Positions 15,947 through 37,645 of a stretch of DNA of 58,440 nt are shown here, piece by piece. Each line of letters opens with the position of its first letter. The stretch's first letter is position 1. The stretch is from the IMG/VR virus record IMGVR_UViG_3300027757_000006, positions 1 through 58,440 of that record, one strand, 5' to 3'. A program made the translations under genes and the position numbers. The DNA is from a virus. Taxonomy: Duplodnaviria; Caudoviricetes. The notes under the pieces were generated by a model. It made no database searches and was not told the DNA's origin. It was given only the letters and a program-made list of their open reading frames with translations.

Positions 15947-16273
15947 ATGGCATTCGTTCGCAAAAGGGTTAAAACTTTCAAGTGGCCTGTAACCGTGGAA
16001 GAACCTGCTGACGGTGGGGTCTTTGATGACTCTAGTTTTGATGCGGTGTTTAAGCGGGTGCCACGGTCCGAGTTCCAGAAGCTTGCGGATAAAGGCGACC
16101 TCGATTTGCTTAAAGCAGTGATGACTGGATGGGAAGGAATCGAGGATGAAGACGGAAAACCGTTGCCGTTTTCCCAGGCAGCAATGAAAGAATTTGCTGA
16201 TGATCCATATTGGATTCGTGGTGTCCTGAAGGCTTACACCGAAACTTTTGAAGGCGCGAAACTGGGAAACTAA
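15947..16273 (+). CDS. Tail assembly chaperone (gpG-like)
   Basis: TGWEGIEDEDGKPLPFS motif; ends in slippery G GGA AAC TAA. Confidence 0.88.
   Translation: MAFVRKRVKTFKWPVTVEEPADGGVFDDSSFDAVFKRVPRSEFQKLADKGDLDLLKAVMTGWEGIEDEDGKPLPFSQAAMKEFADDPYWIRGVLKAYTETFEGAKLGN
16264..16270 (+). promoter_or_regulatory. -1 ribosomal frameshift site GGGAAAC
   Basis: X XXY YYZ heptamer; the -1 frame is open from 16270 into ORF 16351-16617, as in lambda G/GT. Confidence 0.85.
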
Positions 16274-16617
16274 AAGATGCCGTCAAGTATTGGGCGAATG
16301 GCGGCAAAAGAATAGAGGACAAGAGTGCAGATGACGCTGCGGCATTTGGATTGAAGCCGCAGCGTCAGGCCGCTCCTGAAAAGGAGCACTTTGAGGTATG
16401 GGAAGAAAACTGGGATGCGTTGATGATGTTCTTGCGAATGCAAACGCAATGGACCGTCACGATGGGAGGTTACGTTGGATTGAAATATGAGGTTTTGCTG
16501 GGTGCATCAGGGCTAATGTCCCTTTATGATGTAAGCAATCCCCGTGAGATGCTGGAGAGCCTTCAAGTAATGGAAGCTGCTGCACTCTCTGAGCTGAACA
16601 AGAAAGATGGCAAGTAA
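16270..16617 (+). CDS. Tail assembly chaperone frameshift extension (gpT / DUF1799-like)
   Basis: FEVWEENW..F..MQTQW..GLKY..LQVMEAAAL motif; in the -1 frame of the TAC gene. Confidence 0.82.
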   Translation, partial: LKDAVKYWANGGKRIEDKSADDAAAFGLKPQRQAAPEKEHFEVWEENWDALMMFLRMQTQWTVTMGGYVGLKYEVLLGASGLMSLYDVSNPREMLESLQVMEAAALSELNKKDGK

Positions 16618-19600
16618 AACCGTTTCGCCTGTTGATATTAAAATTAAGGTCACAGGCGCAGAACAGCTTGCGTCCTTAAAAAGCTCGTTCCGAGATTTAT
16701 CAAAACAGACAAAACTTTCTGATATAAGTATTGTTCAAGCAGCTAAAGATATTAGAAATTTTGCCGCAGAAGCTGGCAACAGCGAAGCGACAGTAAGAGG
16801 ACAGATTAAGGCGCTTGAGGGTTTGCGCCAGCAAGCCGCCATGGGCGGCAGGATGTATAAGTTTCTTGCTGCAAAAATTGGGGATTTAGGGCTAGCAATT
16901 AAGGGGTCTAGTACGCAGATAGAAGAGCAAAGATCCGCGTTACTAGAAATTGGGTCCGCCGCTTCTTCTAGTTCGGCGCAAATAAAAAAAGCAATTGACG
17001 GTCTTAAGCAATTAAGGAATCAAGCGTCTCAGGACTCTCAAGCATTCTTTGGGCTTTCAAAAGAAATTGATGAGTTGACAAAAAAAGTTAACTCACTTGA
17101 CGCTGCACTAGAACAAAACGCAAGCCGAAACAGGGCTAGGGCTGCTTCTGTCTCAGGAGTCTTAGCAAAGTATGAAGCTGCTGCAAGAAAACAAGCTCAA
17201 GCCGCAAAAGAGAGAGAGGAAATTGTTAGAGGTGAAGTCATAGCTCTTAGCGAAAAAGGTAAGGCTACCGAAGAGCTTGCAAAGAAAGAAAATCAATTAA
17301 CTGCAGCGATAGCGAGAAGGAAGCAGCTAGGCATTCAAGAGACTGCTCGCGAGGCTAGAAGATCAGTAAGAGCTGGTGCTCAAGTTTATACAGGCAACGT
17401 AGAACTTGGCCCTATAGATGCGCTTGATCAGCGATTAGGTGATCTACCGGCTACAACTGCTGCTTTTTCTCAAAGGCTCACTGAACTGCAAGATCGGTTG
17501 ATAAATACTGTTAGGTCAAGCGATCAATATGTTGCTGTTGCTTTGCGTATTGCACAGGTGCAGCGAGAGGCAACAGCAACGGCTCAGGGGTTAGGCGCTG
17601 CGCTGGTAAAAGATTTAGCTAGCGGCAATACAGTTAGAAATCAAAAGAATCTGCGTGAAGCTATTGGCCAGCTTCAGGCTGAGATGAATGAGCTGAATAC
17701 AGAAACAGCTGAAGGTTCATCTAAGTATGCAGAAAACGCAAGGCAGGTTAATAATTTACAGAAAGAATTGAACGAGATCGCTGGCAGTTACCGCAATGTG
17801 ACTGACATGGCGAGGCAGGCTTCTACTGCCCAGGGTGTTTACGCGAACACCTCTGTAGGTGGCAACTATCTTCGTCGAGGTATTGTCAGGCAGCAAGAGG
17901 CTGCTAGGGCTGAACTTGGTGCAGCCGTTAGGGCAGGCGTGGCTTCAACGCCGCTGCTGTTGCCTGCTGCCGGTCAGACCACGGCTCCGGGTACTGGGCT
18001 AGCTAGAAGCGGAATGGCTCGCGGAGTCTTCGATTTAACAGGCAATGTCACTAGAGCACGACCAGTCCCCGCTGACTTCCCCGGCTTAAAAGAAGACGCA
18101 GCTGCGTTACCAACAGCTGCGACTGGCGTAAATGCCGCTTTAGGGATGAGCGAGCCAATAAAGAAGCAAGCAAATGCGCTAAGAGAAGCTGCTGCTGCGT
18201 ATAAGCCATATAACGCAGAGATAAGAAAGGCTAAAGCCGCAAACAATGGAAGCATTTCTGGCATAAATAACCTTAAAGCTGCTCTGGAAAGGAAGCGCAA
18301 CGAGCTGCCTACAACCACGGCTGCATTTAAGCGTTTAACCCAGCAAATTGAAAACCTTGACAGGCAGTCGGAAAAAGCCAGCCGAAGGATGAGCCGCCGT
18401 AAGTTCTCTCCCGGTAAGGCCGCCCAAGTTGCTGGTGCAACGATCTCCGGCGGTATTTTCGGTGGACCTGAAGGGTTCCTGGGTGGCGCAATTGGTGGCG
18501 CAGTTGGTGGTGTTGGCGGGTCTTTTGCTGGTGCTGCACTTGGCGCTCAGGTAGGTCAGCTCAGGCAGCAGCTTGGTGGGTTTGCTGAGTATGCGGCGAG
18601 CATTGAGAAACTCAAAATTGCGTTGAATGGTATTGCAGGTGACGCAAGTAATTACAACCAAGCACTGCAAGCCGCTGCTGATGTCACAAAAGAATTAAAC
18701 ATTCCACAAGAAGTTGCTATCAGAGGGATCACTCGACTTACAGCAGCAGTAAAAGGTGCTGGCGGTGGCATTGCTGATGCAGAGCTTGCGTTCAAGAACA
18801 TTAACTCTGCAATTATCGCTACGGGTGGCGGTGCAGAGCAGGTTGAAGGAGCCGTAACTGCGCTCGTTCAGATTTTCTCGAAGGGCAAAGTCAGTGCAGA
18901 AGAGATCAATCAAATTGCAGAAAGACTGCCTGGCACATTTAACAAAATTGCTGAAGCGTCAGGCAGGACCGGCCCAGAGCTGACAAAAGCCTTGCAAAAA
19001 GGCGAGGTGGGCCTGAATGACCTGATGAAGTTCTTGGTTCAACTGGGTGGTGAATACGGCGAATTGGCTAAAAAGATTGCCGGGTCTTCCGAGTCAGCTG
19101 GAGCAAGACTGACGGTTGCATACGACAAAATGCGGCTTGAGATAGGTAAGGCTCTTCAGCCAATCGGTGCTGAGTTTCAGGAAGCGTTTTTGGAATTTAT
19201 TACTGATATTGGCCCAAGCCTGGTGGTTATGGCGAAGGCTGTTGGAGAAGGGATGCGTTTTATTATTCAAAACAGAGGTGCGATATTGACTATTGCATCT
19301 TTCGCGGCAAAGCTTGTCGCCGTGAATTTTGCACTAAAAGCGTTTGTTGCTTTAAGTGGGCCACTAAAACTTATGTTCGCATTAATAAGAACTGGGTTCA
19401 GACAAACCACTCAGCAGGCGTCTCTTGCCGCGACAAAGCTGGCCAGGTTTGGAACGACAGTGAAAACTTTAGCTGCATCCTTAGCAGCGCCAATCGTAAT
19501 AAGCTTTGCCATTGTTGGCGCAGAGCTGGTTATATCTTACTTCAATAGAATTAAGCAAGCAAAAGCTGACCTTGACGCTTCTGGCACAAAACCTCAAGGT

Positions 19601-21397
19601 GAAGTTTTCTTCAGGTCAATCGGTGGAACGGCTGCAACGAAAGAAACGCTGAGATCAACCTTTAAGGATATTGTCAAGAATCTTGATATTGTCGAAGCTA
19701 GGCTCGCGAAAACAAAGAAAAGTATTAAAGAGTTTAAGGCATCACAATCAGATGGAGGCGAGCGGGCCATGGGGGGAAGTGCGCCTCCTCTCGCTGGTGT
19801 AGCAGTCCCAGAAGACTTGACATCAAGGCTAAAAGCAGACGAGGCAGCTCAAGCAAGACTTCGACTGAACTATAAAACCTTAATTGAAAAGTACCCTAGT
19901 GCTCCAGAAGCCGCTAAAGGTCTAACTGACTTCGCTTCTCCTACCGGCACTGATACCGGCGGCGGCGGCGGCGGCGGCGGCAAGGCAGAAAAAGTGCGCA
20001 AGTCTTTGCTTGATTCAATCATAAATGAAGGCAAACTCATTGCCGCTACAAAAGCGAGGCTGGATAACGAGATAGATATTGGCGAAGCTCAAAACAAAAA
20101 CAACAGGTCAAGGGTAAATCAGTTAAACAACCAAAGAATTTCTATTGACTTTGCCGAACAAGCTGCACAGGTTGAACTGAAATATCTCGAAGCCCTTAAG
20201 GCTGCCGAGGGGCAAAAAGAACAGGGCGCATTGGTAGCAGAAGCTATTGCAACTAAACAAAACGACGACGCTCGCCTTTCAATTGAATATGCTGCAGAGC
20301 TTACGAAAGAAGCACAGCGATACAGGTTTGAGAAAGAAGCCATTGCAAAAGCGTCCGAAGACGAGCTGTTTAGCTTGCGCGATCAGCTTGGCTTGGTGAC
20401 AAACGAGCAGAGAATTGAAAGATTCAGGCAGTCAAGGAAAGACGCAGGGGATCCAAACGCTGAACAGCAAACCGATCTGTTCCGCCAAAGAATAGATCCA
20501 ACGTTGACGGAAGGGTTGAGCCAAAACATTCGCAGTTTGAAAAAAGAACTGGAAGATCTGGTAAATCCAATCAATCAAATCACTGGCGCAGCAAACGCTA
20601 TTGGCAGTGCATTCTCTCAGTCGTTCACCAATGCAATTACTGGTGCCACAAGTGCGAAGCAGGCATTGGCTGATTTTTTCAAGAGTGTTGGTAGTTATTT
20701 CTTGGATATGGCGGGGCAGATTATTGCGAAGATGGTGACAATAGCGGTTTTAGATGCTGCTTTGGGCCTTCTTGGTGGCAGCAGTGGTGGTGGTGGTGGT
20801 GGTGGTGGTGGTGGGTTTAACCCCAGCGCACCAAGTATTACAGGTAACTCACTCGGAGACTTTGGCGGTGGTACGCCTTTTGCTGGAGCGTTTAGGGCTA
20901 ACGGCGGCCCAGTTAGCGCAAATAAGCCATATATCGTGGGCGAACGTGGGATGGAGCTTATGGTCCCTTCGGGCAACGGAAACATTATTCCAAACGATGT
21001 CTTTTCGGCAAGTCGTGCTGCTATTTCTGGCGGCAGCCCATTGGGCCTTGCTGGCGGCTCTGGCGATCTTGGTCAGGACGGAATGGCCGAAAGTCGTAAT
21101 TACATCAACAACAACTACTCAACTCAGCAAGCCATTGCTCAAAGTCAAGCGGCTGTATCATCAAGCTCTATGTCAATGGAGCGAGTGATTGAGCGTAAGG
21201 CTGCAGAACGTCAAGCCACTGAAATGTCAGAGCCGATCAGGGTTAAGCTAGATACCACGGTGATCAACAATGTGGAATATCTAACAGTTGAGCAAGGACT
21301 TGCGCTTTCCGAATCCGCTTCTCGCAAGGCCCGTAGCCAGGTATTTTCTGACTTAAGGCAGCGGCCTGCATCAAGGTCCAAAGTGGGGCTTGGCTGA
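16607..21397 (+). CDS. Tape measure protein
   Basis: 1596 aa, Ala-rich helical, QIFSKGKVSAEE tape-measure motif, C-terminal ANGGPV..YIVGERG motif. Confidence 0.95.
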   Translation: MASKTVSPVDIKIKVTGAEQLASLKSSFRDLSKQTKLSDISIVQAAKDIRNFAAEAGNSEATVRGQIKALEGLRQQAAMGGRMYKFLAAKIGDLGLAIKGSSTQIEEQRSALLEIGSAASSSSAQIKKAIDGLKQLRNQASQDSQAFFGLSKEIDELTKKVNSLDAALEQNASRNRARAASVSGVLAKYEAAARKQAQAAKEREEIVRGEVIALSEKGKATEELAKKENQLTAAIARRKQLGIQETAREARRSVRAGAQVYTGNVELGPIDALDQRLGDLPATTAAFSQRLTELQDRLINTVRSSDQYVAVALRIAQVQREATATAQGLGAALVKDLASGNTVRNQKNLREAIGQLQAEMNELNTETAEGSSKYAENARQVNNLQKELNEIAGSYRNVTDMARQASTAQGVYANTSVGGNYLRRGIVRQQEAARAELGAAVRAGVASTPLLLPAAGQTTAPGTGLARSGMARGVFDLTGNVTRARPVPADFPGLKEDAAALPTAATGVNAALGMSEPIKKQANALREAAAAYKPYNAEIRKAKAANNGSISGINNLKAALERKRNELPTTTAAFKRLTQQIENLDRQSEKASRRMSRRKFSPGKAAQVAGATISGGIFGGPEGFLGGAIGGAVGGVGGSFAGAALGAQVGQLRQQLGGFAEYAASIEKLKIALNGIAGDASNYNQALQAAADVTKELNIPQEVAIRGITRLTAAVKGAGGGIADAELAFKNINSAIIATGGGAEQVEGAVTALVQIFSKGKVSAEEINQIAERLPGTFNKIAEASGRTGPELTKALQKGEVGLNDLMKFLVQLGGEYGELAKKIAGSSESAGARLTVAYDKMRLEIGKALQPIGAEFQEAFLEFITDIGPSLVVMAKAVGEGMRFIIQNRGAILTIASFAAKLVAVNFALKAFVALSGPLKLMFALIRTGFRQTTQQASLAATKLARFGTTVKTLAASLAAPIVISFAIVGAELVISYFNRIKQAKADLDASGTKPQGEVFFRSIGGTAATKETLRSTFKDIVKNLDIVEARLAKTKKSIKEFKASQSDGGERAMGGSAPPLAGVAVPEDLTSRLKADEAAQARLRLNYKTLIEKYPSAPEAAKGLTDFASPTGTDTGGGGGGGGKAEKVRKSLLDSIINEGKLIAATKARLDNEIDIGEAQNKNNRSRVNQLNNQRISIDFAEQAAQVELKYLEALKAAEGQKEQGALVAEAIATKQNDDARLSIEYAAELTKEAQRYRFEKEAIAKASEDELFSLRDQLGLVTNEQRIERFRQSRKDAGDPNAEQQTDLFRQRIDPTLTEGLSQNIRSLKKELEDLVNPINQITGAANAIGSAFSQSFTNAITGATSAKQALADFFKSVGSYFLDMAGQIIAKMVTIAVLDAALGLLGGSSGGGGGGGGGGFNPSAPSITGNSLGDFGGGTPFAGAFRANGGPVSANKPYIVGERGMELMVPSGNGNIIPNDVFSASRAAISGGSPLGLAGGSGDLGQDGMAESRNYINNNYSTQQAIAQSQAAVSSSSMSMERVIERKAAERQATEMSEPIRVKLDTTVINNVEYLTVEQGLALSESASRKARSQVFSDLRQRPASRSKVGLG

Positions 21398-31640: not shown

Positions 31641-33899
31641 ATGGCCCTTGATATTGTTCACAAGAAGAGTGGTGTATCCCAAAGGCTTCCGGTCGCTAGC
31701 GATCTAGGGCTAGGCGAAATTGCCGTAAATTACAACGCTGACGGCCCATTTCTGACATGCAAAGATACTGCCGGGAATGTCCGAAAAATTAACAATATTT
31801 GGGTTAGCGCCACTGCGCCTACTGGGGCGAGCCCCGGCGACCCTTGGCTTGACACAAGCGTAACCCCGGCAAGGCTTTTTGTATATCAAGATTCTTCGAC
31901 GCAATTCACTCCTGCAATAACAGTAAACACAGCAACTTCTAGCGCAAGTGGCACTGTTCAGCTTGCTAGCGCAACTGACATTACTAATGGATCACCTGGG
32001 CGTGTAGTAGATGCTTCTCAGCTGCAAGCTGAAATCGGCAGCTTTCTTGTTGGCGTTAACGCAACATCTCCTTTGGCGGTTGGCGGAAACTCAACCCAGC
32101 CAAACATTTCAATTACTCCTGGCACGGCAGGCCAAATACTTAGAACCAACGCACAGGGCAATGCGGTTGAATTTACAAGCGATTTAAGCGTTCCTGGAGA
32201 CTTAGAAGTCATAGGCGATGTTTCCGTAGGCCCTGGAGCGCCTTCTTCTCCTAGCCTAACTATTCATTCAAACGGCGAGATTACTGCTGGAGCATACAAC
32301 AATATTGACATAAGTCGTGGCGGCAATTCTGTTTTAAGCAACACAAGTGTAGGAGTACAAAACTTAGGCAGCAATACTACTGGGACTGGAAATTCTTCCT
32401 TCGGAAAGAAATCTCTTGAGAGCAATACCGAAGGAAGCGGTAACACATCTGTTGGGCTTAAATCTCTGCAAGCGAACACAACAGGGTTTCATAATACTTC
32501 GGTCGGGGAATCGGCTCTTATTGATTGCACAACAGGGTCTAGAAACGTAGCGGTCGGCAATAAAGCAGCAGGTGATCTTATCGGAGGAGAGAATAATACT
32601 GCATTGGGAGTTGGAGCTTTAAGGCTTTCGACAACAGGAGAATACAATGTCGCGTTAGGGCACGATTCTGCATACCACTTCAGCGGAAACAATAATACAG
32701 TCATTGGGGCCTATAGAGGCAATTCAAGCGAAACAGCGATAAGTGATACCGTAGTTATTTCAGCAGGCCGAGCAGAGAAACTTAGAATTAATTCAAATGG
32801 ATCTCTAATTTTTGGTGGTTCGTTACCTGCCAACCCCAATATTCAGCTTGATGACAACGGAGATGGAGCCTTCGCTGGTTCGGTCACGATTGCAGGTGAT
32901 TTGACTGTCAGTGGAACAACAACAACACTGGATACCCAGAATCTTCTGGTTGAAGATAAGAACATTGAGCTTGGCGTAGTGGCAAGCCCCACAAACACAA
33001 CCGCAGACCTTGGAGGAATAACACTTAAAGGAGCCACAGATAAAACCTTTAGGTGGTTACAGAGTAGAGAAAATTGGAGATCATCTGAACATTTAGACCT
33101 TGCACTTAATAAGGAATATCGAATCGCCGAGACAAAGGTTCTAGACGCTACAAGCTTGGGTACAGGCATTGTCGGATCAAGCCTGACAAGTGTCGGCACG
33201 ATTGCTATAGGTTCTTGGCAAGGAACTGAGGTCGGAGTTGCGTATGGGGGAACCGGACAGACGACTTATACAGATGGCGAGCTTCTTGTAGGCACCAGCA
33301 GTGGGTCATTAGCAAAAGCCACTCTCACTGGTGGCACAGGGCTTACAACTGTTAACGCTAGTGGATCCATTACGCTCAACTTAGACGACACGGCTGTAAC
33401 GCCAGGAAGCTACACAAATGCAGCAATCACGGTAGACCAGCAAGGAAGGATTACGGCTGCTAGCAATGGAAGTGCAGGATCCTATCTAACTGCTTCAGAT
33501 ATTGGCGTAACTGTCGAAGCGTTTGACGCTGCAACAGTCAAGGAAGACGAAAATCAAACATTTACTAAAGCTCAACGTGGAAGTATCACAGCATTAGCCG
33601 ATGCAGCCAATATAGCGGTCAATTTAAATGAAAATAATTTTTACAGCGTAACGCTCGGCGGAAACAGGACACTTGACAACCCGACAAACTTAGCCGCTGG
33701 GCAATCCGGTTGTATTTTTATTAGTCAGGATGGAGTGGGAGGCAGGACGCTCGCATTCGGGAGCAATTACGATTTTGCTGGAGGTATTACTCCAGCCCTT
33801 TCGGCTGCCCCTGGTGCTGTTGATGTTTTGAGTTACGTTGTCCGTCTGGCCGGAGTAAGCCCTTCAATTATTTGCACACTCGCAACCAATTTTTCTTGA
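31641..33899 (+). CDS. Long tail fibre protein
   Basis: LGLGEIAVNY N-terminus, NTxxG beta-roll repeats, ITVDQQGRIT, NRTLDNPTNL C-terminus. Confidence 0.85.
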   Translation: MALDIVHKKSGVSQRLPVASDLGLGEIAVNYNADGPFLTCKDTAGNVRKINNIWVSATAPTGASPGDPWLDTSVTPARLFVYQDSSTQFTPAITVNTATSSASGTVQLASATDITNGSPGRVVDASQLQAEIGSFLVGVNATSPLAVGGNSTQPNISITPGTAGQILRTNAQGNAVEFTSDLSVPGDLEVIGDVSVGPGAPSSPSLTIHSNGEITAGAYNNIDISRGGNSVLSNTSVGVQNLGSNTTGTGNSSFGKKSLESNTEGSGNTSVGLKSLQANTTGFHNTSVGESALIDCTTGSRNVAVGNKAAGDLIGGENNTALGVGALRLSTTGEYNVALGHDSAYHFSGNNNTVIGAYRGNSSETAISDTVVISAGRAEKLRINSNGSLIFGGSLPANPNIQLDDNGDGAFAGSVTIAGDLTVSGTTTTLDTQNLLVEDKNIELGVVASPTNTTADLGGITLKGATDKTFRWLQSRENWRSSEHLDLALNKEYRIAETKVLDATSLGTGIVGSSLTSVGTIAIGSWQGTEVGVAYGGTGQTTYTDGELLVGTSSGSLAKATLTGGTGLTTVNASGSITLNLDDTAVTPGSYTNAAITVDQQGRITAASNGSAGSYLTASDIGVTVEAFDAATVKEDENQTFTKAQRGSITALADAANIAVNLNENNFYSVTLGGNRTLDNPTNLAAGQSGCIFISQDGVGGRTLAFGSNYDFAGGITPALSAAPGAVDVLSYVVRLAGVSPSIICTLATNFS

Positions 33900-34736: not shown

Positions 34737-35012
34737 GTGATTGAAATTTACGCTGCGATCCTAGGCGCGTCCCTTGGTATAGCTGGGATGAGTGTCTCTG
34801 GGTTTACTAGGCGAACCAGCGAAAGCCGTGAAGCGGTTATTCGCCTCACCGCTGGTGTCGAGTCTATTGCGACAAAACTTGAAGACTTGCATCAGGACAT
34901 GAAGGCGGAAAAAGTTCAGGCCAACGCTGATCGCCGTGAAATTTACGAACGCCTGAATGATCACGGGAACCGAATAACTGTTTTAGAAACCACCAAGGCT
35001 AGAATCGACTAA
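34737..35012 (+). CDS. Membrane-anchored coiled-coil lysis-region protein (holin/XhlA-like)
   Basis: N-terminal hydrophobic helix, coiled coil, RITVLE end; lysis cluster. Confidence 0.6.
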   Translation: MIEIYAAILGASLGIAGMSVSGFTRRTSESREAVIRLTAGVESIATKLEDLHQDMKAEKVQANADRREIYERLNDHGNRITVLETTKARID

Positions 35013-35029
35013 GAATCAACGGCATTCAA

Positions 35030-35179
35030 ATGGGCATCGAAGAAGTTTTGGCACATCCAGCCTTTTGGATTGTGGTAGCAGCAGCTAGTGAGCTGATTGG
35101 AATGAGCAAGCTTAAGGACAACTCAGTGTTTCAACTCCTGTTCACTGTTCTGCGTTCTTTAAAGGGAAAAAAGGGCTGA
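35030..35179 (+). CDS. Holin-like small membrane protein (49 aa, not in ORF track)
   Basis: MGIEEVLAHPAFWIVVAAASELIGMSKLKDNSVFQLLFTVLRSLKGKKG; hydrophobic with basic tail, upstream of the endolysin. Confidence 0.7.
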   Translation: MGIEEVLAHPAFWIVVAAASELIGMSKLKDNSVFQLLFTVLRSLKGKKG

Positions 35180-35391
35180 TCCCTGCTGATGGGAGGTGGT
35201 TGTTTAGATTCTCAACGCGATCACCGCTTGAGGGATTGAAGCGCGAAATTCAACGTCGTAAATTCGAGGCAACCCTAAAGCCTCGGATTGACGCTGAGGT
35301 TGAACGCTGGCATAAATCACAGCCGCCAGTCATGCCACCACCCCAGATCAACGACCTGCACATTAAATCACCTTGGAATGACGAACAGTAA
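35170..35391 (+). CDS. Probable -1 frameshift extension of the holin-like gene (ORF 35200-35391)
   Basis: Slippery G GGA AAA AAG at 35164-35173; the -1 frame is open through 35391. Confidence 0.6.
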   Translation, partial: KGLIPADGRWLFRFSTRSPLEGLKREIQRRKFEATLKPRIDAEVERWHKSQPPVMPPPQINDLHIKSPWNDEQ

Positions 35392-36451
35392 AGCAATCAC
35401 CCTGGAACAGTTGTTTCGCTATTACAAAGGCTTGCCGCATCAAGCCGCAAGCATCTCACTTCTAGAAGCAGACCTTGCGAATATTGGCTATGAAGCTGCT
35501 ATGCGACGTGATCGGGAATGGTTCGCAACATGGAGCCAATCAGGCAAACAGTCTGATCACAAGCAAGCATTAGAACTTATTAAGAAGTTTGAAGGCTGGC
35601 ACGCAGAAGCGTATAAATGCCCTGCCGGTTACTGGACGATTGGATGGGGAAATTTGTCGCATCTTGACGGGCGACCCGTAAGGGAAGGCGACTGGATCAG
35701 AAGAAAAGAAGGCGATGCTTTACTGGAAGGCACAGTAGACAAAATCGACGACAAGCTTTCTCAGACCGTTCCTTACTGGTCAGAAATGGCGGAGAATCAG
35801 CAGGCAGCATTGATCAGCTTCGCCTACAACCTTGGTTCTGGATTCTATGGCTCTGAAGGTTTTGAGACAATCAGCCAAAAGCTTCGTGATAAAGACTGGA
35901 AAACTGTTCCTGACGCGATGCTGCTCTATCGAAACCCTGGGAGCAGCTTTGAAGCCGGTCTGAAACGTCGGAGGCAAGCCGAGGGCAAACTCTGGAAAGG
36001 CGGAGATCAATCGCCGCCAGCTGAAACAGCAAAGCTCCGGCCTGGGTCTGCGTTTACCAGTCGGCTGACCCCCCACATCACGCTGGGCGAGTTTGCGCTG
36101 AATCTAGAAGAGCGACGGTTCAATGAGCAGCATCAGTTAGATACTGCTGCAACTCTGGCGGCATTTCTAGAGCGTGTCCGTGGCAGGTTTGGCGGAAAGC
36201 CGGTGGTCATTACGTCTGGCTACAGGCCACCAGCGATCAATCGATCAGTCGGCGGAGCTAGCGGTTCGGAGCACTTATACCCCGCGCCAGGCGTTGGCGC
36301 TGTGGATTTTTATGTACAGGGCGCTGACATTTACGCCGTACAAGAATGGTGTGACCAAAATTGGCCGCATAGTTTAGGATATGGAGCTAACAAAGGATTC
36401 GTCCATCTCGGTATGCGAGAAGCCGGTCCAAGAATACGCTGGGATTACTAG
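35378..36451 (+). CDS. Endolysin: GH24 lysozyme plus peptidase M15 domain
   Basis: FEG..EAYKCPAGYWTIGWG lysozyme motif; TSGYR..N..VGG.SGSEH..AVD..FVH M15 motif; ATG 35378 preferred over TTG 35288. Confidence 0.92.
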   Translation: MTNSKAITLEQLFRYYKGLPHQAASISLLEADLANIGYEAAMRRDREWFATWSQSGKQSDHKQALELIKKFEGWHAEAYKCPAGYWTIGWGNLSHLDGRPVREGDWIRRKEGDALLEGTVDKIDDKLSQTVPYWSEMAENQQAALISFAYNLGSGFYGSEGFETISQKLRDKDWKTVPDAMLLYRNPGSSFEAGLKRRRQAEGKLWKGGDQSPPAETAKLRPGSAFTSRLTPHITLGEFALNLEERRFNEQHQLDTAATLAAFLERVRGRFGGKPVVITSGYRPPAINRSVGGASGSEHLYPAPGVGAVDFYVQGADIYAVQEWCDQNWPHSLGYGANKGFVHLGMREAGPRIRWDY

Positions 36452-36453
36452 AA

Positions 36454-36969
36454 ATGGTGCTTTCCGATCTCGAAATTATTTCGCTGTGCTCCGGCGGAGC
36501 AATGAAAGACTGGTCCGAAGATCTGATCAACCCGGCATCGCTTGATGTAAGGCTGGGCAGTGGATTGATGATTGAAGTCGCAGGGCAGAAAGACCTGCTC
36601 CATGTTGACATCTCCAGCCGAACAGAAAAGAACCCTTATCGATTGACGCCAGGTGAGTTTGTCCTGGCTGAAACGCATGAAACATTTAAAAAAATACCTG
36701 ATCACATTTGCGCTCAGTTTGCCTTGAAATCAAGCAGGGCTAGAGAGGGATACGAGAATCTACTTGCTGGGTGGATCGATCCAGGCTTTTGCAACAGTAA
36801 ATTAACCCTCGAATTAGTAAACGTAAGGCGTCATTACGACCTACCGCTATACCCTGGCCTGAAAATAGGCCAGATCATTTTCATGAGAATGAGCGAAGTC
36901 CCTATGAACAGTTACTCGAAGACGGGTCGCTATAACGGCGATTCGACGGTTCAAGGCAGTAAAGGTTAA
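36454..36969 (+). CDS. dcd: dCTP deaminase
   Basis: INPASLDVRLG, KSSRAREG, AGWIDPGF, LTLEL and KIGQ motifs. Confidence 0.93.
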   Translation: MVLSDLEIISLCSGGAMKDWSEDLINPASLDVRLGSGLMIEVAGQKDLLHVDISSRTEKNPYRLTPGEFVLAETHETFKKIPDHICAQFALKSSRAREGYENLLAGWIDPGFCNSKLTLELVNVRRHYDLPLYPGLKIGQIIFMRMSEVPMNSYSKTGRYNGDSTVQGSKG

Positions 36970-37012: not shown

Positions 37013-37645
37013 GTGGCAGCTGAGTTTAGGCAGTGTCGAAGAAGCAGTCTGTGCCGGGAGTACCTCAGCACAGACCTAATGAAGCATGAAAAAAATGGAT
37101 GGGTATGCGATCCTCACATGTGCCCCCGGAGGGTGCCGGAAAGTAATAATTCTTATCAAGTCGAAAAACGCTATCTGACAACAGCGAGAATCATGTTTCT
37201 AACCTCGGCCAAAGAGGACCAAGACCCTGAAGAGTTTAGTGAAATATTTGCATCAAGACTAGAAGAGTTGACAGAAGAAATAGTAAGTTTTGACCTAGAA
37301 GTTGTGCCGTTAAATGGCGGTTTTATTGGTCATGAGATCATAGGGTCCGAGCTTGTACCTAAAAAAGCAAGCAAACACAGGTTCAGAAAGCAGATTTTAG
37401 ACGAATGGGATAATTGCTGCGCCTACTGCGGCCAGCCCGGTGACACCTTGGATCACATCCTTGCTAGATCTAAAGGCGGCAGTATGAGCGTCACTAACAA
37501 TCTCTTATGCTGCTGCAGGTTTTGCAACGGATCCAAGAGCGATAAACCTGTATGGGAATGGTTTAGGGCGCAGCCCTTTTGGAGCCAAGAACGGGAAGAC
37601 CATATCAAATACTGGATGGAGCATGGAACTTTGGATCAGCCATAG
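37013..37645 (+). CDS. HNH endonuclease with acidic N-terminal extension
   Basis: CAYCG..TLDHI..SKGG..N...CCRFCNGSK; start codon uncertain. Confidence 0.85.
   Translation: MAAEFRQCRRSSLCREYLSTDLMKHEKNGWVCDPHMCPRRVPESNNSYQVEKRYLTTARIMFLTSAKEDQDPEEFSEIFASRLEELTEEIVSFDLEVVPLNGGFIGHEIIGSELVPKKASKHRFRKQILDEWDNCCAYCGQPGDTLDHILARSKGGSMSVTNNLLCCCRFCNGSKSDKPVWEWFRAQPFWSQEREDHIKYWMEHGTLDQP

Follow-up and report, generated by a model that had tools for sequence, protein, structure and literature searches.

The stretch of DNA analysed here, called the window throughout, is the complete 58,440-bp record of a tailed virus (IMGVR_UViG_3300027757_000006; Caudoviricetes), in which no tRNA genes were found. 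Its structural genes run from left to right and include a tape-measure open reading frame (ORF) at 16607-21397 (1596 amino acids, aa) and a tail-fibre-like ORF at 31641-33899. Downstream of them lies a compact cassette on the + strand, which consists of ORF1, ORF2, a TTG-initiated ORF that falls within a longer frame termed ORF3, and an endolysin gene (Table 1). In this paper we looked at the junction between ORF2, a small holin-like membrane protein gene, and ORF3. An earlier note on this DNA had proposed that a -1 frameshift at the heptamer A_AAA_AAG is hidden in ORF2 and joins it to ORF3, and this core reading passes the comparative test described below. Based on the sequences of its relatives, we consider it very probable that programmed -1 ribosomal frameshifting at A_AAA_AAG yields both the short holin-like protein and a 120 aa isoform.

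Table 1. Features of the slip site and of the cassette around it, in window positions (nt, nucleotides; KD, Kyte-Doolittle hydropathy).
Feature	Position	Strand	Description
A_AAA_AAG heptamer	35167..35173	+	in ORF2 X_XXY_YYZ phase; proposed -1 shift site
G_GGA_AAA heptamer	35164..35170	+	in ORF2 phase; present in 6/83 distinct sequences
0-frame stop TGA	35177..35179	+	one sense codon past the heptamer; within -1-frame codons CTG ATC (Leu-Ile)
ORF2	35030..35179	+	ATG at 35030, 49 aa; 0-frame short product with one hydrophobic helix
ORF3	35173..35391	+	-1-frame extension, 72 codons plus stop (35389-35391), GLIPADGRWLFRFSTRS...DLHIKSPWNDEQ
TTG ORF	35200..35391	+	63 codons; lies inside the -1-frame ORF3
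TTG with preceding GGAGG	35200..35202	+	possible local internal start (codon 9); not conserved
TCCC-N7-GGGA hairpin	35180..35194	+	TCCC (35180-83) and GGGA (35191-94) can pair; 6 nt past the heptamer
ORF1	34737..35012	+	91 aa small membrane protein; hydrophobic N-terminus, coiled-coil-like tail; KD maximum 1.92 at residues 1-15
Endolysin	35378..36451	+	357 aa; N-terminal module of ~55 aa, then Phage_lysozyme and Peptidase_M15_3

The 3' end of ORF2 reads TTA AAG GGA AAA AAG GGC TGA. The earlier note had described a 49 aa membrane ORF with this ending and a -1 frame that stays open to 35391 and absorbs the TTG ORF, and our own reading of the sequence agrees on both points: from 35173 the -1 frame reads GLIPADGRWLFRFSTRS... 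and stays open until its stop, taking in TTG 35200 on the way. Two overlapping heptamers had also been pointed out and both are indeed in phase, but the first of them, G_GGA_AAA, is rare among the relatives (Table 1). On both strands of the window AAAAAAG is found 21 times, against 19.6 +/- 4.7 in shuffled sequences. Since this frequency is at chance level, the presence of the heptamer is uninformative by itself and the signal has to be sought in its conservation in relatives.

Among named viruses, the closest relatives are the cyanosiphoviruses KBS-S-2A, S-CBS1 and S-CBS3. All three have the same cassette, in which A_AAA_AAG is in the frame of ORF2, separated from the stop by one sense codon, and the -1 frame is open into an ORF3 homologue. 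To these were added loci from three scans. The IMG/VR database was scanned with an ORF2 alignment, which matched at least 595 stretches and gave at least 438 confirmed relatives, and the best 80 of the 438 were analysed; a second scan with a fused protein as query gave 31 further loci, including more distant members; and a scan of species-representative genomes gave 7 loci, mostly on contigs of metagenome-assembled genomes (MAGs). The total is 122 sources, that is 121 loci and the window. In the first set the in-frame AAAAAAG was found in 83 of 84 sources. Over the whole collection, the in-frame heptamer is accompanied by a -1-frame homologue of ORF3 in 105 sources, both are missing in 17 (with 10 distinct ORF2 sequences), and no source is discordant: one was never seen without the other, and ORF3 was never seen in another frame. 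The earlier note had named conservation of the slip site and of the frame relation in homologues as a way to check its proposal, and both hold in 105 of the 105 ORF3-bearing sources, while the slip site is absent from 17 of the 17 without ORF3. For example, one of these 17 (L069) has an ORF2 that is 77% identical to that of the window, but its ORF3 is deleted, so that ORF2 abuts the endolysin, and it writes the same Lys-Lys as AAG AAA.

The 105 ORF3-bearing sources represent 86 distinct sequences, of which 83 are full length, and the counts that follow refer to these 83. All seven heptamer columns are invariant (entropy 0) in 83/83, whereas the neighbouring columns have entropies of 0.9-1.9 bits. 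Synonymous sites are near saturation, the mean third-position entropy being 1.37 bits for ORF2 and 1.57 bits for ORF3. Outside the heptamer a single third position is invariant among the 46 codon columns of ORF2, that of a Trp codon, and not one among the 72 of ORF3. A conserved Lys taken as a control, in the motif LKDNS, is written AAG in 43 sequences and AAA in 29, and the remaining Lys codons are divided into 303 AAA and 288 AAG. The codon that precedes the heptamer encodes nine different residues across the relatives and ends in A every time; where it is Gly it is GGA in 25 of 25 cases, compared with 10% of the Gly codons elsewhere. The 0-frame stop follows the heptamer at a distance of 3 nt in 80 sequences, 6 nt in two and 0 nt in one. 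At this fixed place it can be TGA (73), TAG (8) or TAA (2), and the overlapping -1 codon stays Leu. The A-run itself has six A in 78 sequences, seven in four and nine in one. The comparison thus shows selection on the slip site at the nucleotide level, beyond the needs of the protein. The relative with nine A (L119; CCA AAA AAA AAG) is also the only one at distance 0, with TAG directly after the heptamer, and its -1 ORF has 107 codons.

Downstream of the heptamer, the three-base periodicity of the entropy follows the -1 frame from its first codon, and in 82 of the 83 no stop interrupts this frame over 70-107 codons. The ORF3 motif xL(I/T/V/M)PxDGRW..(R/L)FSTRS is conserved 5' of any start codon, and conservation begins at the slip site. 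In KBS-S-2A, 52 codons of the -1 frame pass without an ATG, GTG or TTG; the 204-nt stretch is unannotated, and the frame encodes ELIPPDGRWLFRFSTRS..., 67% identical to the window. The first ATG, GTG or TTG falls in codons 0-4 in 9 sequences, 5-12 in 21, 13-22 in 39 and 23-49 in 6, at codon 50 or later in 7, and is missing in one, so that in 53/83 it is at codon 13 or later or absent. The codons at which it was seen are 1, 2, 4, 8, 9, 10, 11, 14, 17, 18, 21-25, 34, 36, 52 and 53. The caveat that GGAGG and TTG 35200 allow an independent start, raised in the earlier note, describes a local accident, as neither element is conserved and the starts scatter from codon 1 to codon 53. In the window the GGAGG is part of the codons for Asp-Gly-Arg-Trp, GAT GGG AGG TGG, which elsewhere are written GAC GGT CGC TGG. 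Judged by these coding signatures, the alignment shows translation in the -1 frame from the slip site onwards, and since ORF3 has no conserved expression signal of its own it would be made essentially only as a fusion to ORF2.

Several points weigh against this reading. At the 3 nt distance given above, the stop of ORF2 shares bases with the second codon (Leu) of conserved ORF3 (cTGA), and 75/83 sequences have a canonical start or a CTG/ATH codon no more than five codons past the slip. In the window, GGAGG and TTG 35200 (codon 9) could add independent initiation. In one relative (L080) a synonymous 0-frame change from CGC to CGT has placed a TAG in the -1 frame, at a distance of one codon from the heptamer (2144-2157), while the downstream ORF3 is otherwise intact. 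This TAG would abolish the long form there; it could be due to mutation or to a sequencing error, or it could point to another route. One other route is that ORF3 is a separate protein of ~70 aa, made by termination-reinitiation or by CTG/ATH initiation at cTGA, with the A-rich tract acting as an initiation enhancer. Reinitiation would tolerate the L080 stop, which lies upstream of that CTG. Still, we regard a separate ORF3 protein as improbable. An enhancer needs no exact, phase-locked AAAAAAG, yet the invariant bases include three wobble positions and the final G, and this G is kept despite a variable residue (G, E, D or A) in the -1-frame codon G-NN that it opens. The 8/83 sequences without even a near-cognate start (CTG/ATH) in the first five ORF3 codons still conserve GL(V/I)PPDGRW; where the stop is TAG or TAA the overlapping Leu codon turns into CTA or TTA; and the relative that lost ORF3 has recoded its Lys-Lys as described above.

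Another hypothesis, which we rate a little lower still, is transcriptional slippage, in which RNA polymerase adds one A within the A-run and produces an in-frame mRNA without any ribosomal slip. A homopolymeric A-run is found in all members, with the longer runs of seven and nine A in the five relatives counted above, and its fixed phase could be explained by the conserved Lys-Lys alone. However, a run of six A, the length in 78/83, is shorter than the runs for which efficient transcriptional slippage is known, and the run is always followed by G, although AAA encodes Lys as well. Independent metagenome DNA contigs span the A-run without an indel, and one contig from an RNA library, belonging to a diverged relative, spans ORF1 to the endolysin with no extra A at the site; this last point is weak, as contigs drop rare variants and the contig may derive from DNA. 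It is hardly credible, finally, that there is no recoding at all and that heptamer and open -1 frame coincide by chance, with ORF3 an ordinary small gene started at TTG 35200 behind its GGAGG: the heptamer is indeed no commoner in the window than in shuffles and S-CBS1 and S-CBS3 are annotated with separate genes in GenBank, but the 105/17/0 co-occurrence, the invariant heptamer columns against near-saturated synonymous sites, the scattered starts and the amino acid conservation 5' of every candidate start contradict this.

Programmed frameshifting can also be confronted with the fused proteins, the host tRNAs and the RNA around the site, and here too some points count against it. The earlier note had named in-frame fusions in some homologues as a finding that would support its proposal. 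Word-indexed searches found two clean in-frame fused proteins with the sequence that the shift predicts, P0009 (125 aa) and P0010 (121 aa), and a HMMER profile search of 1.84 billion representatives found a further one, P0056 (148 aa). These fusions are few, and they stand beside error-ridden, frame-switching ORFs of the same lineage (P0020, P0043, P0076 and P0087). They may thus reflect homopolymer miscalls and, because of the frame-scrambled ORFs among the same matches, the fusions do exist but are treated here as weak evidence. The public protein sets also contain -1-frame ORFs that were called from spurious upstream starts overlapping ORF2 (P0030-32, P0058, P0062 and P0094).

On the host side, the 34/34 typed tRNA hits of a picocyanobacterial MAG in which the cassette occurs include one tRNA-Lys(UUU) and none with CUU, an argument that comes from one incomplete MAG with an uncertain status as host. 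From dnaX it is known that A_AAA_AAG is prone to shifting where tRNA-Lys(UUU) is the only tRNA for Lys.

No conserved stimulator was found, neither an upstream Shine-Dalgarno (SD)-like element, where the columns are variable, nor a downstream structure. The earlier note had pointed out the TCCC/GGGA hairpin. The pairing is possible in the window, where the fold of 35174-35240 has an energy of -20.7 kcal/mol, but its z-score of -1.29 is unremarkable (22/200 shuffles fold as well). RNAalifold on 79 relatives, a set without L003, L098, L099 and L101 whose ORF3 N-termini differ, gave no consensus pair downstream of, upstream of or across the slip site, and the mean z-score of the single-sequence minimum free energies was -0.56. 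The hairpin is therefore judged to be local and no part of the signal. Stimulatory elements are common at X_XXY_YYZ sites but not obligatory for -1 frameshifting. Lacking a conserved stimulator, the site could have a low efficiency, and we infer that a modest fixed fraction of the ribosomes would shift. For comparison, the accessible text of a preprint gives 14-16% frameshifting for A_AAA_AAG without stimulators in E. coli cell-free systems (bioRxiv 10.1101/2025.10.02.679949).

The mechanism that we propose is as follows. Ribosomes translating ORF2 would reach A_AAA_AAG with two Lys-tRNAs placed on AAA and AAG. The majority would stay in frame, read GGC and terminate at TGA, releasing the 49 aa membrane protein. 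A fraction would slip one base back, so that the tRNAs re-pair on AAA AAA, and would continue with GGG CTG ATC and so on for 72 codons. The slipped product would consist of the shared N-terminal membrane helix followed by a soluble, basic and mostly helical C-terminal domain, and ribosomes that finish ORF3 may be delivered onto the overlapping endolysin start.

What the two products do depends on the nature of ORF2. Its hydrophobic helix spans residues 11-25 (KD maximum 1.83) and is flanked by an acidic N-terminal side (-2) and a basic C-terminal side (+5). It thus has traits that are usual for holins, namely a small size, one or more transmembrane helices and a C-terminal tail that is charged and basic. 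In the window and in the isolates ORF2 is also located immediately 5' of the endolysin, as holins are in lysis cassettes. Across the relatives, ORF2 homologues directly precede three hydrolase architectures (GH24+M15, glucosaminidase + C39-like and C39_2-like); in a few loci the gene that follows is an HNH or connector gene and not a hydrolase. On the other side, and counting against the reading of ORF2 as a holin gene, no membership in a described holin family was found by sequence in Pfam, NCBIfam, PHROG or Atlas, so the label holin-like rests on features and position. ORF2 does match phrog_22542 (E 7.6e-29), a 49-position profile of unknown function. ORF1, ORF2 and ORF3 all lack a named family in Pfam, NCBIfam or Atlas, where the Atlas clusters are unnamed. 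A dual start of the lambda S type was not found either, as the ORF2 isoforms share their N-terminus and differ by a C-terminal extension, and ORF3 of the window, with neither a Cys nor a hydrophobic segment, does not contain a spanin lipobox. From the helix, the charges and the gene order we infer that ORF2 encodes a holin-type lysis protein.

The long isoform is made of ORF2 codons 1-48 and the 72 ORF3 codons, which gives its 120 aa. ORF3 is free of Cys and hydrophobic segments and has a net charge of +3. A model of ORF3 predicted by AlphaFold2 (AF2) from 46 sequences has a helix at 18-49 as a block with a predicted local distance difference test (pLDDT) score of 90-94 and a weak C-terminal hairpin, with a mean pLDDT of 76.6. 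For the naturally fused P0010, AF2 gave a low-confidence model (mean pLDDT 60.5), of which only the division into helices can be used (10-25, 31-46, 56-64 and 67-97). Based on the positive-inside rule, the protein probably has an N-out, C-in topology, which would place the ORF3 extension in the cytoplasm. The tail of ORF3 ends in a Pro-rich linker followed by the conserved motif DDLHI(K/R)(S/A)PW. In one ORF3 variant (P0001, 102 aa) the C-terminal unit PPP-x-IDDLHIK(S/A)PWN is present three times in tandem, which suggests that this unit is a modular peptide motif. ORF3 profile matches were also obtained in very long repeat proteins (P0035, 1971 aa, with 35 stretches; P0037, P0051 and P0053); they cover the charged helix only and were judged to be probably compositional. 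A complex prediction for the ORF3 domain and the endolysin returned no answer (score 0.00) and counts neither way.

With these two products, the ratio of short to long forms may tune lysis, the long isoform being antiholin-like or regulator-like or serving as a membrane-tethered partner. A further-reaching possibility, which we hold to be rather unlikely, is that the frameshift acts as the clock of the lysis cassette: one recoding event would set both the short/long ratio and the dose of endolysin, as only slipped ribosomes would reach the endolysin start. The cytoplasmic tail of the long isoform, with its C-terminal PPP-x-IDDLHI(K/R)(S/A)PW peptide, would then regulate hole formation or dock a partner. 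The endolysin ATG of the window sits 14 nt within the end of ORF3, and an overlap of ORF3 end and endolysin start is usual in the relatives (offset -32 in 22/83, -29 in 16/83 and -14 in 12/83).

The rest of the cassette and its surroundings gave several further observations. ORF1 opens the conserved small-gene cassette 5' of the endolysin, and its homologue precedes ORF2 in the isolates too. It matches phrog_26178 (E 8e-40), a family of unknown function, and in Pfam only sub-threshold matches were obtained, for example XhlA (E 0.056). The two catalytic domains of the endolysin were identified by Pfam (E 6.2e-26 and 9.4e-19), and the whole protein matches phrog_28234 (E 1.1e-138). Its N-terminal module of ~55 aa (window 35378-35545; ..L..LFRYYK.LPHQ.AA...LE......W..TW..) belongs to no Pfam family (loci L004-L116), and it is retained while the catalytic part swaps between GH24+M15 (357 aa), forms of 208-254 aa, and glucosaminidase + C39-like (L069). 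In the window, the endolysin is followed by a dCTP deaminase gene (36454-36969) and then by an HNH gene (37013-37645). In three relatives (L097, L101 and L120) an HNH endonuclease gene comes after the small-gene cassette, in the usual place of the endolysin. A diverged subgroup (L088-L096 and L100, ~53% identity) has kept the slip site and ORF3, and no same-strand endolysin ORF was found downstream of it within the fetched flank. Among the structural genes, a site resembling those of tail chaperones, G_GGA_AAC (16264-16270), is in phase in a 108 aa ORF that ends CTG GGA AAC TAA (region 15947-16617), and the -1 frame after it enters a TTG ORF (16351-16617) just before the tape-measure ORF.

Frameshifting at A_AAA_AAG by tandem slippage of Lys-tRNAs is known from E. 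coli dnaX (tau/gamma) and from IS3/IS911-type insertion sequence (IS) elements. As in those cases, the cassette described here would use the identical heptamer, make two products in a ratio from one gene and have a stop near the site in one frame. Unlike dnaX and the IS elements, the gene is that of a membrane protein in a phage lysis cassette, the site has no conserved SD-like element or stem-loop, and the shifted frame lengthens the product, whereas in dnaX the shift truncates it. Programmed -1 frameshifting in tailed phages is known for tail chaperones and for some capsid genes, while holins are regulated by dual starts or by separate antiholin genes. The G/GT frameshift of tail assembly chaperones in long-tailed phages (Xu, Hendrix and Duda 2004, cited in PMC3556154, as far as the accessible text of the latter goes) is similar in that a stimulator-poor phage -1 shift is located near the end of the short ORF, the downstream ORF lacks its own start, and an abundant short form is accompanied by a rarer, C-terminally extended one. 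The G_GGA_AAC site at 16264-16270 appears to be an example of this canonical type in the window. The tail chaperone shift differs in that here the shift would take place in a lysis cassette, at another heptamer and in the gene of a membrane protein.

Two isoforms of a small membrane lysis protein from one gene are also found in the dual-start holin/antiholin pairs of lambda (S105/S107) and phage 21 (S68/S71), where the isoform ratio sets the lysis timing. There, alternative initiation changes a few residues at the N-terminus, whereas here frameshifting would add a 72-residue C-terminal domain. A frame change is already known to govern lysis functions: the accessible text of PMC10885494 describes that expression of the MS2 lysis gene depends on frameshifting in the coat gene (Kastelein et al.) and that a lactococcal frame-change case from 1994 concerns the lysin itself. 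The ORF3/endolysin overlap would allow a similar delivery of ribosomes. In MS2, however, the frameshift is of low level, ribosomes terminate and reinitiate after it, and there is no conserved slip heptamer that makes a fusion; neither the MS2 nor the lactococcal case is that of a holin-like membrane protein such as ORF2. Our literature search found no frameshift reported in a holin or in the lysis genes of these cyanosiphoviruses, although it could be mentioned in the original paper on S-CBS1 and S-CBS3 or in its supplements; the accessible portions of PMC6157547 and PMC3751600 contain neither the word 'frameshift' nor 'holin'.

If it is true, a second isoform of a holin-like protein that is built by frameshifting links phage recoding with holin regulation and would be a new phage route to setting the stoichiometry of lysis proteins, in a large environmental family with at least 438 relatives in IMG/VR. 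Should the frameshift also act as a clock, it would be a recoding-based device for holin/antiholin balance and enzyme dosage, distinct from the dual-start or separate-gene antiholins that have been described. The annotation of the cassette would be corrected in S-CBS1, S-CBS3 and KBS-S-2A, in the last of which the downstream coding region is unannotated. The cassette would also provide a natural A_AAA_AAG site without a stimulator at which frameshifting in cyanobacteria could be measured, for which cultured phage-host pairs exist, such as KBS-S-2A with Synechococcus WH7803 and S-CBS1 with CB0201, and it bears on the timing of lysis by abundant siphoviruses of marine and estuarine Synechococcus.

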